Assembly: GCA_000004985.1 (NCBI GenBank)
Contig: GG739261.1
Strand: one strand, 5' to 3'
Length of the DNA: 2,443 bases
Origin: Naegleria gruberi
Lineage: Eukaryota
Within the stretch, counting starts at the first letter, position 1; the number at the start of each line of letters is the position of its first letter. The notes under the pieces were generated by a model. The model did not search any database. It worked only from the letters and a program-made list of their open reading frames with translations, and had not been told where the DNA came from. Positions 1 to 2,443 of the stretch are shown one piece after another. The translations under genes were made by a program, and so were the position numbers.

Positions 1-525
1 AGCTCTTTTGGTGATTAAAAAAGGATCTTCAGAAAATCGTACTGCCTCAATCAAGGTTTCATCCGAAAACATTGATAAATCTACAAATCTCAAGTAATAA
101 TAAGGAACTACTTTAACCGCCTGATTCAATATTTCTGGATCATGTTTGAAAGGAGAAAATTCAATAACTCTTCCATTATTTAAAATAGCTGCCAAATTAA
201 TGGCCCTGTCATTCATTAGTGTTTCTGGTAGAAATTTCAATATCATTCCTCTTGTTGATACTATATCCATCACAAATTCATAATCATTTTTCAAACTTTC
301 AGATGCAAGATTGAAAAAATTCGAATCTCTCTGCACAGCCAATGAGATAATTTCCTTATCTGAAGAGAAATGAGGAGCTACATAATTGTAAGCAGTACCA
401 TCCTGCTTAACTGCCTCCAAAACTGTTTCCCTATCTCGTTTCAATTCTTCAGAGGCATAGTAAATGGCAAGGCCTGAATTTTTCACAGCTTGCAAAACTA
501 ATTCCTTATCATTTTTCAGTTCCAT
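1..525 (-). CDS. DUF4116-like tandem-repeat protein, N-terminal 175 codons, ORF continues past window position 1 (3'-partial)
   Basis: The reverse strand reads with no stop from ATG (plus 525-523) down to position 1. The translation is MELKNDKELVLQAVKNSGLAIYYASEELKRDRETVLEAVKQDGTAYNYVAPHFSSDKEIISLAVQRDSNFFNLASESLKNDYEFVMDIVSTRGMILKFLPETLMNDRAINLAAILNNGRVIEFSPFKHDPEILNQAVKVVPYYYLRFVDLSMFSDETLIEAVRFSEDPFLITKRA. It contains about seven repeats of roughly 26 aa with the pattern L-K-x-D-x-E-x-V-L-x-A-V-K-x-x-G-x-A-L-x-Y-A-S, matching my memory of Pfam DUF4116. The six-frame track does not list it because there is no stop inside the window. The true start is uncertain (see findings). Confidence 0.8.
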   Translation of the reverse strand, partial: MELKNDKELVLQAVKNSGLAIYYASEELKRDRETVLEAVKQDGTAYNYVAPHFSSDKEIISLAVQRDSNFFNLASESLKNDYEFVMDIVSTRGMILKFLPETLMNDRAINLAAILNNGRVIEFSPFKHDPEILNQAVKVVPYYYLRFVDLSMFSDETLIEAVRFSEDPFLITKRA

Positions 526-565
526 AGAAACGAATTTCAAATAATCTCCATTCTGAGATGGTACT

Positions 566-663
566 AAGTGACGGTGAAACGGGGGACGGATGAGACGGAG
601 AACACTCAGTTTCTTACTACAGACGGGAGAAGAGCATCCGCTTAATACTGTTGACGGTAAACC
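566..663. repeat. GC-rich (about 50% GC) GACGG island, left arm of a degenerate inverted repeat pair
   Basis: Five same-strand GACGG pentamers lie at 570-574, 585-589, 594-598, 622-626 and 653-657. The terminal direct repeats TGACGGTGAAAC (569-580) and TGACGGTAAACC (652-663) bound them. The surrounding sequence is about 30% GC. The reverse complement of 559-606 aligns block by block with 2008-2100. Confidence 0.6.
617..636 (-). promoter_or_regulatory. Polypyrimidine tract followed by AG on the coding strand upstream of gene 1, candidate splice-acceptor-like signal (cis 3' splice site or trans-splice site)
   Basis: The minus strand reads GATGCTCTTCTCCCGTCTGTAG (plus 638-617). It is followed by a second C/T-rich stretch, TTCTCCGTCTCATCCGTCCCCCGTTTCACCGTCACTTAG (plus 604-566). 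The next AGs on that strand are at plus 566-565 and 556-555, just before the ATG at 525. Plus-strand purine richness makes the whole left island pyrimidine-rich on the gene strand. Confidence 0.25.
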
Positions 664-697
664 AAAATGGAAAATGCACAACCTTAGTAACACCGAT

Positions 698-730
698 AAA
701 TTGAATGATACATTTAATAAAATTGAATTT
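698..730 (+). promoter_or_regulatory. Two same-strand AAATTGAAT motifs 21 bp apart (698-706 and 720-728, the second extending to AAAATTGAATTT at 719-730)
   Basis: The 9-mer is exact and is repeated a third time at 1629-1637. It contains the octamer AAAATTGA, which is known as a Mimiviridae early-promoter element. This orientation would drive plus-strand transcription into the spacer. Confidence 0.3.
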
Positions 731-941
731 TCCTATTATATTAAATAGATTCTCTTGTGTTGTTTGGCTTGAATTGTTGGAACGAAAACCAAGCAAGGTA
801 TTACGAGAGTTTGGTTGATTTTTTGAAGCAAGGTTTGTTTGTTAAGTTAAGAATATGTGAAAAAATATTTCAACATCTAGTACGTGATGTACTTTGATGA
901 TTCTTCGAGTGGTTTCACATCCGTAAGCTGCCAAACTTTCA

Positions 942-1130: not shown

Positions 1131-1361
1131 TTGGAAATATCTTTATTTTGGTGAAACTCAACATTTTACTAAAATCATCATCACTGTTGAATCCATTGGA
1201 AAGATTGGAAAACTATTAATGTAGGATTGTTGGAAATGGTCAATAGTAGCATAGTAAATTTTGAACGGTGGATTTTCATCAAGTTTTGATAGGGATAGGT
1301 ACATGTGAATTTTAAAAAGTACATGTACCATTACTCAACATGTACTTCACCAACTTGGAAA
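1131..1361. repeat. Cluster of five TTGGAAA heptamers, including an adjacent tandem pair ATTGGAAAGATTGGAAAA
   Basis: TTGGAAA occurs at 1131-1137, 1196-1202, 1205-1211, 1230-1236 and 1355-1361, all on the plus strand. Base composition predicts well under one copy. Confidence 0.45.
1299..1345. promoter_or_regulatory. Three spaced copies of the palindromic core GTACATGT(AC), candidate binding-site array
   Basis: GTACATGTG lies at 1299-1307. GTACATGTAC at 1319-1328 is a perfect 10-bp palindrome. ACATGTAC lies at 1338-1345. Centre-to-centre spacing is about 20 bp, roughly two helical turns. AAGTACATGT (1317-1326) and ACATGTACTT (1339-1348) form a larger inverted pair around a 12-nt spacer. Confidence 0.35.
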
Positions 1362-1639: not shown

Positions 1640-2004
1640 AAAGATGACCAACTTTTTCAACATCTACACCTTATAGGGATCACACTCATATCAATTAATC
1701 CATATTTTTCATTTTCAGTAAAAAATCAAAATTTGAACTTTCCAAAGTTTACTATTTACCTGAATTGTTTGAGAAGGAAACTTCTCAAAAAAAGAAGGGT
1801 AGTTTCACAACAGTGTTTTAATCAACTAAGTCAAATTATTTCATGTCATTCTTAAATTTGAGACAGAAAGAGAGAAATCTTTGATTTTAGTGAATATTCC
1901 ACAACAGAGGTGTTGTGTTTGTTTGTGAATTTATTTCCATTTTAAATTTTTCCATTTTGGATTTATTATAGAATGATACATTAGTATTTCCCTTAATTCC
2001 ATTC

Positions 2005-2102
2005 TTGCTCCGTCTCTTACTGCTGACTGTCCCGTTTGACAGCTTATTACATCTGACGGATCCCGTTAGACGGGATTTACCGTCACACCGTCAATTAGTA
2101 TC
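2005..2102. repeat. GC-rich (about 48% GC) GACGG/CCGTC island, right arm of the inverted repeat pair
   Basis: It contains CTCCGTCTC (2008-2016), CCCGTTTGAC (2031-2040), GACGG (2055-2059, 2069-2073), CCGTCAC (2080-2086) and CCGTCAATTAGTA (2088-2100). The first island, read in reverse complement, has the same blocks in the same order: CTCCGTCTC, CCGTCCCCCGTTTCAC, CGTCAC, TTAGTA. Confidence 0.6.
2054..2085 (-). terminator. Interrupted GC-rich hairpin in the 3' flank of gene 2, candidate 3'-end formation or termination signal
   Basis: The outer stem pairs TGACGG (2054-2059) with CCGTCA (2080-2085), 6 bp. The inner stem pairs ATCCCGT (2060-2066) with ACGGGAT (2070-2076), 7 bp. The loop is TAG and there is a TTA bulge on the 3' side. 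It starts 47 nt downstream of the gene 2 stop on the coding strand. Minus-strand AATAAA copies follow further downstream at plus 1962-1967 and 1930-1935. Confidence 0.35.
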
Positions 2103-2131
2103 TCCTCCTCCATTCTCTTTGATATATTCCA

Positions 2132-2443
2132 TCATGAGCTCTTTGTTATTCGAATATTTCCTGACCATGTTCTTGGAATATTATTTATCCCAAAGAGTTT
2201 CAAATAGGTCCGTAACCATACAATATCATCTGATAAATCCTCAAGGTTGATCTCATCACTATAATGATGAATAAATACTTGATTAATTAAATCTCTTTCG
2301 AATTTCAATTCATTTGGAATAAACTCAATGGCTGAAGGACAATTTTTCAGAGTTTCCAATATTATTTCTCTATCAAATCTCAATTTTGCATTGGCATATT
2401 GAATCACCATTCCGTTATGTTTACAAAGTTTCAGCACCACTTC
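2132..2443 (-). CDS. DUF4116-like repeat protein, C-terminal 103 codons plus TGA stop at 2134-2132, 5' end outside the window
   Basis: The ORF track gives a minus-strand ORF at 2132..2440. Its first M is really a GTG read as a start, and the upstream codon 2443-2441 (GAA) is also open, so the gene continues off the edge. The translation E-VVLKLCKHNGMVIQYANAKLRFDREIILETLKNCPSAIEFIPNELKFERDLINQV shows two DUF4116-type repeat units. It is followed by a tail of about 45 aa without repeats and then TGA. Confidence 0.8.
   Translation of the reverse strand, partial: EVVLKLCKHNGMVIQYANAKLRFDREIILETLKNCPSAIEFIPNELKFERDLINQVFIHHYSDEINLEDLSDDIVWLRTYLKLFGINNIPRTWSGNIRITKSS

Follow-up and report, generated by a model that had tools for sequence, protein, structure and literature searches.

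The locus analyzed here, a window of 2443 nucleotides with two DUF4116 genes on its minus strand, raises the question of why five copies of the pentamer GACGG are clustered on one strand at 569-663. The initial annotation described this island as a C/T-rich tract on the coding strand of gene 1 and proposed that it would suit a DNA- or RNA-binding factor, or a polypyrimidine splice signal with an embedded motif. In this work, we found that the island is the left end of an insertion with terminal inverted repeats (TIRs) and a target-site duplication (TSD), and that a second G+C-rich patch, the right island, is the other end of the same insertion.

The motif counts in that annotation were reproduced. 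GACGG occurs on the plus strand at 570, 585, 594, 622, and 653, with irregular spacings (15, 9, 28, and 31), and CCGTC is absent from 569-663. The window as a whole contains 11 GACGG on both strands compared with 0.74 expected, a number attained in none of 200 shuffles. The G+C content of the window is 32%, with two G+C-rich patches, and that of the left island is 49%. When 569-663 alone was subjected to dinucleotide-preserving shuffles (n = 5000), the mean GACGG total was 0.70 and none attained five. Because no local shuffle matched the observed count, the excess is not an effect of local G+C content. The placement of five out of five GACGG on one strand is by itself weakly significant (two-sided binomial 0.06); for the shorter core ACGG, the left end has six forward and no reverse copies. 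The right island mixes both orientations, as had been noted (minus strand at 2010, 2080, and 2088; plus strand at 2055 and 2069). The left island was also described as bracketed by direct repeats. The two 12-mers, TGACGGTGAAAC (569-580) and TGACGGTAAACC (652-663), are indeed near-identical (10/12, ungapped), but the proposed consensus TGACGGT(G/A)AAC matches only the second; TGACGGTGAAAC holds one additional A.

The insertion occupies 555-2107 (1553 bp). The features of the element and of the genes on both sides of it are as follows:

1-554, minus strand: gene 1, 3' piece (DYLKFVSMELKNDKE...), with DUF4116 repeats, continuing past the left edge of the window
546-554: target-site duplication, left copy (9 bp, CTCCATTCT), an identical 9-mer adjoining the inverted-repeat arm
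555-582, plus strand: left terminal inverted repeat, GAGATGGTACTAAGTGACGGTGAAACGG (28 nt, 79% complementary to 2080-2107)
569-663, plus strand: left subterminal motif array, with ACGG cores at 571, 579, 586, 595, 623, and 654, five of which are GACGG
662-674, plus strand: CCAAAATGGAAAA module, left copy, a 13-mer with an inverted match to 1948-1960; inner limit of the end symmetry
675-1947: A+T-rich interior "filler" without a detectable gene
1948-1960, minus strand: CCAAAATGGAAAA module, right copy
2005-2092, minus strand: right subterminal motif array (the right island), with inward ACGG cores at 2010, 2032, 2063, 2080, and 2088 on the minus strand
2054-2085: hairpin or palindrome, found at the right end only (-11.9 kcal/mol, z = -4.4), built from two inverted copies of the motif together with their neighbours
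2056 and 2070, plus strand: inverted ACGG cores of the right array
2080-2107, minus strand: right terminal inverted repeat, inward reading GAGGAGATACTAATTGACGGTGTGACGG
2108-2116: target-site duplication, right copy (CTCCATTCT, 9/9), abutting the right arm
2108-2168, minus strand: gene 1, 5' piece (MVRKYSNNKELMMEYIKENG), with ATG at 2168-2166 and an alternative ATG at 2135-2133
2132-2443, minus strand: gene 2, 3' end, a second DUF4116 gene, with stop TGA at 2134-2132

The TIRs are 28 nt long and imperfect (22/28, 79%), with a conserved block TACTAA-N-TGACGGTG, and the 9-bp TSD is perfect. Both termini begin with 5'-GAG (GAGAT... and GAGGA...). The window has 66 pairs of exact 9-mer direct repeats, of which only the CTCCATTCT pair flanks an inverted repeat of more than 14/28. 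In 2000 dinucleotide shuffles, the best inverted repeat beside 9-mer direct repeats reached 19/28, compared with 22/28 in the real sequence. The TSD length is also well defined: taken as 8 bp, it leaves arms with unequal ends, and taken as 10 bp, it includes a mismatch.

Gene 1 is interrupted at codon 20/21, within its first DUF4116 repeat. The two gene-1 pieces sit in different minus-strand frames on either side of the element, and deletion of 555-2116 (the element plus one TSD copy) fuses 2168-2108 to 554-1 into a single minus-strand open reading frame (ORF). This fused ORF encodes MVRKYSNNKELMMEYIKENG followed by DYLKFVSMELKNDKE..., and from the junction sequence onward it reads DYLKFVSMELKNDKELVLQAVKNSG... 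In a Pfam search, the joined protein matched DUF4116 with E = 6e-79 in six stretches, the best of which (residues 8-56) covers the whole profile (1-49 of 49) across junction 20/21. The 25-residue DUF4116 period, which is half of the 49-residue Pfam unit, is unbroken there, and the first unit, NNKELMMEYIKENGDYLKFVSMELK, has the same length and pattern as the next, NDKELVLQAVKNSGLAIYYASEELK. Homologues aligned over the junction were gap-free in all seven cases, and the best homologue of the restored protein has 39-45% identity over most of the length. Direct DNA repeats spaced 75 and 225 nt (in 1-554 and 2341-2385) mirror the same 25-residue half-repeat period.

Eight codons inside the element, translation of the 5' gene-1 piece would stop at an in-frame TGA (2093-2091). 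On the other side, the frame of the 3' piece (525-732, minus strand) continues without a stop for 59 codons into the element's left end and has no ATG there; in this frame, an ATG first occurs at 525-523 (MELKNDKE...). If the element end supplies a promoter, a shortened gene-1 product could still be made. For annotation of the locus, these findings mean that gene 1 starts at 2168 or 2135 and not beside the island, which lies inside the 1553-bp insertion and not in the gene-1 upstream region. The 1.5-kb "intergenic" stretch would be transposon filler.

The two DUF4116 genes are closely packed. The TGA of gene 2 (2134-2132) overlaps the ATG of gene 1 (2135-2133) as ATGA, and a gene-1 start at 2168-2166 would give a 37-nt overlap between the two genes. 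Such tight gene packing is usual for prokaryotic and viral genomes. Two tandem DUF4116 genes this closely packed suggest a prokaryotic or (giant-)viral genome rather than a typical eukaryotic one, and a compact viral or prokaryotic genome may here be host to an element of eukaryotic style, with motif arrays in its subterminal regions.

At both ends of the element, the ACGG-core sites form an ordered set. Counted inward from the terminus, the left-end sites have offsets of 17, 25, 32, 41, 69, and 100, all forward, and the right-end sites have offsets of 17, 25, 42, 73, and 95 (forward) and of 35 and 49 (reversed). The first two sites (offsets 17 and 25) are placed identically at both termini, and 11 of the 13 end sites have the same inward orientation. 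These 13, out of 18 ACGG in the window, fall within ~105 nt of the element termini, with six at the left end and seven at the right end (~100 nt). Five motif subtypes, TGACGGT(G/A), AAACGGG, GAGACGGAG, GACGGTAAA, and AGACGGGA, are common to both ends, and the 13-mer CCAAAATGGAAAA is found ~110-160 nt inward in both. Past the first 28 nt, collinear alignment is lost, and what the ends have in common is short modules that face inward alike but follow a differing order. A long degenerate inverted repeat was considered and rejected, as collinear similarity ends at 28 nt. Shared modules without collinearity are the pattern of subterminal binding-site arrays and not that of a long inverted repeat.

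The reversed right-end sites pair with their neighbours to form the hairpin at 2054-2085, and the two ends are therefore structurally unlike. The strand asymmetry of the left island is the polarity of one transposon end, and the right island is of mixed orientation because it combines the mirror-image end with one palindromic pair. At the inner edges of the two subterminal regions, we also found ATTGAATGATACATT (700-714) and ATAGAATGATACATT (1968-1982); this pair is direct, and all other shared modules are inverted.

We found no gene within the element. The interior has no long ORF under eight genetic codes, with stops throughout in every code, and its six-frame translations had no match in Pfam or NCBIfam even at E <= 1. 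These six-frame searches also revealed neither a functional transposase gene nor a remnant of a Mutator/IS256 transposase within the element. A search of the interior against Rfam found no family at gathering score (the sole weak match, mir-5365, had 24.8 bits compared with a gathering score of 70), and a tRNA search found none. Promoter and terminator scans and a scan for the mimivirus-type AAAATTGA motif gave results not above chance. With no ORF, protein family, or RNA family in its interior, the element is classified as non-autonomous. Other features of the interior include a short tandem repeat at 965-985 (2.3 copies of AATAGTAGT) and, mid-interior, a near-perfect palindrome at 1298-1346 (GGTACATGTGAATTTT and AAAAAGTACATGTACC, with no spacer), with a third copy, ACATGTAC, at 1339-1346.

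The heptamer GTGAAAC, for which a recurrence at 1151-1157 (plus strand) had been pointed out, is indeed found there. The window contains four copies in total, the others being at 574 (plus strand), 912, and 1802 (both minus strand); all are within the element, two per strand. A count of four was attained in 3 of 200 shuffles. The reverse complement of 909-924, ACGGATGTGAAACCAC, is similar to the end motifs. The internal GTGAAAC copies may be internal copies of a binding motif or may be due to chance.

The insertion anatomy, namely, TIRs, a TSD, a restorable target, and no gene inside, points to a non-autonomous TIR transposon. With good confidence, we thus consider it likely that a non-autonomous cut-and-paste DNA transposon, 1553 bp long, inserted at codon 20/21 of a minus-strand DUF4116 gene and that the island is its left subterminal region. 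Some observations count against this reading: a single copy is known, the TIRs are imperfect (79%), and the collinear repeat is far below the 100-500 bp usual in Mutator-like elements (MULEs). The initial proposal of a factor-binding array can be retained in part. An irregularly spaced, oriented motif suits a sequence-specific DNA-binding protein, but a role for RNA structure is unsupported, as the predicted folding of the left island is no more stable than that of shuffles (z = -0.37). Given the location of the island inside the insertion, the binding protein is most likely a transposase and not a regulator of DUF4116 genes, and the ACGG-core motif is most likely the predicted transposase binding site, by analogy with known subterminal arrays.

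Transposition of such an element could proceed as follows. A DDE-type transposase encoded elsewhere in the genome would act in trans, and it would recognize the terminal block TACTAA-N-TGACGGTG together with the ACGG-core array in the first ~105 nt of each end. Cooperative binding to both arrays would bring the ends into a paired-end complex, in which the two may be told apart by arrangement: all sites direct at the left, and an inverted pair forming a hairpin at the right. Excision would be followed by reinsertion with a 9-bp staggered cut of the target, which would generate the duplication. The empty site would join ...AATAATCTCCATTCT to CTTTGATAT..., with a single CTCCATTCT.

Several known systems share parts of this organization. 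In the maize Ac/Ds system, the transposase binds cooperatively to multiple subterminal AAACGG hexamers, which confer reaction specificity, and non-autonomous Ds elements of ~1 kb carry unrelated filler DNA (PMC3260210). The element found here is similar in having short TIRs followed by subterminal regions of ~100-200 bp, in which a short CGG-containing motif is irregularly spaced and the ends are non-identical. Like Ac/Ds, it has subterminal arrays of short motifs (six at the left and seven at the right, all putative binding sites), and AAACGG(G) is present once in each end. However, hAT elements produce 8-bp target-site duplications (PMC3260210, PMC2528002), whereas the TSD here is 9 bp. The termini are GAG... 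rather than CAGGGATGAAA (CAGGG/YARNG type), the imperfect inverted repeat of 28 nt differs from the 11-bp one of Ac/Ds, and the dominant motif is (G)ACGG. The host genome is also different, being A+T-rich, compactly packed, and not that of a plant. TSD length and terminus type do not fit hAT, but the subterminal array does.

For Mu and MULEs, a 9-bp (9-11 bp) duplication is typical, the inverted repeats are usually 100-500 bp, and the transposase-binding sites are internal to the extreme terminus (PMC2528002, PMC3310237, PMC10401008). Non-autonomous MULEs have diverse interiors (PMC10401008). The 9-bp TSD, G-purine termini, and putative binding sites internal to the tip of the element are all MULE- or IS256-like. 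Its collinear repeat is only 28 nt, unlike the collinear TIRs of 100-500 bp in MULEs, but such a short TIR does not exclude this family because non-TIR and short-TIR MULEs exist (PMC2528002). Merlin/IS1595 (IS1016) elements have an 8- or 9-bp duplication, inverted repeats of at least 24 bp, and a conserved 5'-GG (PMC8101967). The element resembles them in TSD length and inverted-repeat length, but both of its termini are 5'-GA, which does not fit this group. As the 9-bp duplication and 5'-GAG termini fit a Mutator/IS256-type element better than hAT, our best guess is that the autonomous partner is Mutator/MULE or prokaryotic IS256-like, although assignment to a superfamily would require the transposase.

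Four other explanations were weighed against a non-autonomous transposon. One is that the insertion, although derived from a transposon, acts as an intervening sequence and is precisely removed by the host, from RNA (introner-like) or from DNA (ciliate-type), such that gene 1 is functional. In the introner version, the inverted repeats would pair the intron ends in the absence of canonical splice sites. In the DNA-elimination version, the 9-bp repeats would serve as pointers, as in a ciliate-type internal eliminated sequence. With either route, the oriented ACGG arrays would be recognition sites of the excision machinery. The site is within a coding repeat, both flanking coding pieces are intact, and loss of the element with one repeat copy restores the frame, all of which would be expected from precise removal; however, a recent insertion accounts equally well for the intact flanks. 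DUF4116 proteins are known from dinoflagellates (Amphidinium match), and in Amoebophrya, introners have been described that have non-canonical ends as well as inverted and direct repeats (PMC7789003). The element is introner-like in having inverted repeats and a duplication inside a coding exon. Yet Amoebophrya introners measure 40-1000 bp, their direct repeats are 3-5 nt, and the genome has ~55% G+C (PMC7789003), whereas the element is 1553 bp, with a 9-bp repeat in DNA of 32% G+C, and has no frame-restoring splice-site pair. Ten equivalent 1562-nt deletions restore the frame (ends AG..TC, GA..CA, AA..AG, AT..GA, TG..AA, GG..AT, GA..TG, AG..GG, GG..GA, and GA..AG), and none of these has GT-AG, GC-AG, or AT-AC ends. 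This result led us to reject a canonical intron and, with it, the suggested polypyrimidine splice signal. A wider enumeration of splice-site pairs gave arbitrary fusions only, in which the DUF4116 repeat was not rebuilt. The overlap between the gene 2 stop and the gene 1 ATG also suggests a compact, prokaryote- or virus-like genome in which introns are unlikely. Taken together, we consider precise removal improbable.

An explanation closer to the one preferred here is that the element is an autonomous IS256-like insertion sequence of ~1.5 kb that decayed and lost its transposase gene by mutation. Its 1553-bp length, 9-bp duplication, and G-starting termini fit prokaryotic IS256-type elements (ISfinder descriptions). 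We nevertheless regard this as very improbable, given the lack of any Pfam or NCBIfam match at E <= 1 and the stops throughout the interior in every code tried; a perfect TSD and an intact target ORF are also hard to reconcile with such heavy decay. A cis-regulatory or RNA-binding array of gene 1 or of DUF4116 genes in general (promoter, 5' UTR, or polypyrimidine splice signal), which follows the initial proposal, would account for a motif that is clustered, oriented, and directly 5' of the remaining gene-1 ORF, the frame of which extends 59 codons into the island region. However, the true 5' end of gene 1 is 1.5 kb away, beyond the insertion, and a mirror-image array is present at the other terminus. 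The lack of canonical frame-restoring splice sites and of RNA structure and, weakly, the lack of GACGG clusters at seven distant DUF4116 homologue loci also argue against this reading, which we hold to be extremely improbable. Finally, the 49% G+C of the island in a window of 32% might suggest chance or local G+C-rich composition, but none of the 5000 local shuffles reached the GACGG count and none of 2000 gave the arrangement of inverted repeat plus duplication; the probability of this explanation is close to nil.

With a non-autonomous transposon as the preferred reading, the regulatory and splice-signal speculation is replaced by a concrete and testable one, in which both islands are the ends of one element. 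For transposon biology, the locus is a clean case in which the duplication is unambiguous and the target can be restored, and its ordered ACGG-core sites are a candidate binding code for the transposase. It is an ordinary kind of mobile element, and its family has no detectable relative in the collections searched. A second copy, an autonomous partner, and an empty site were all absent from the viral, metagenome, prokaryote-genome, plasmid, and phage collections, which do not include the sequence of the window itself. A search with TACTAANTGACGGTG gave more than 120 matches in viral contigs, all attributable to chance and without extended similarity. The stricter TACTAANTGACGGTGNNACGG gave none in viral contigs, two in metagenome contigs, and one in prokaryote genomes, again all chance. 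Nine matches to GAGNNGNTACTAANTGACGG in viral contigs were all unrelated and lacked motif arrays, and the plasmid and phage records had no blastn match to the whole window.

Homologues of the DUF4116 protein occur in diverse contexts, for example in a bacterial conjugative element, on a metagenome contig of 2.2 Mb, and in a giant-virus metagenome-assembled genome. Around seven such homologues (L124-L130), we found zero to two scattered GACGG per locus and no cluster, a weak test because the homologues are distant (<= 45% identity). No similarity to the element was found at these distant loci. In L124-L127 (ENA metagenome contigs, genes ~650-1360), the distant DUF4116 homologue P0010 lies at the edge of a conjugative-element-like gene set, and its neighbours encode a relaxase/MobL, DarT, a 1257-residue DEAD helicase, and a TraG/TrwB coupling protein. 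The DNA around P0010 has a G+C content of 22-23% and recurs in at least 16 contigs. PcfJ-domain genes lie within ~4-8 kb of two other DUF4116 homologues, on the JGI metagenome contigs L128 and L129. L128 has a G+C content of 19%, and L129, from the 2.2-Mb contig, which is rich in ankyrin and DUF285 genes, has one of 26%. That DUF4116 and PcfJ occur together may merit attention.
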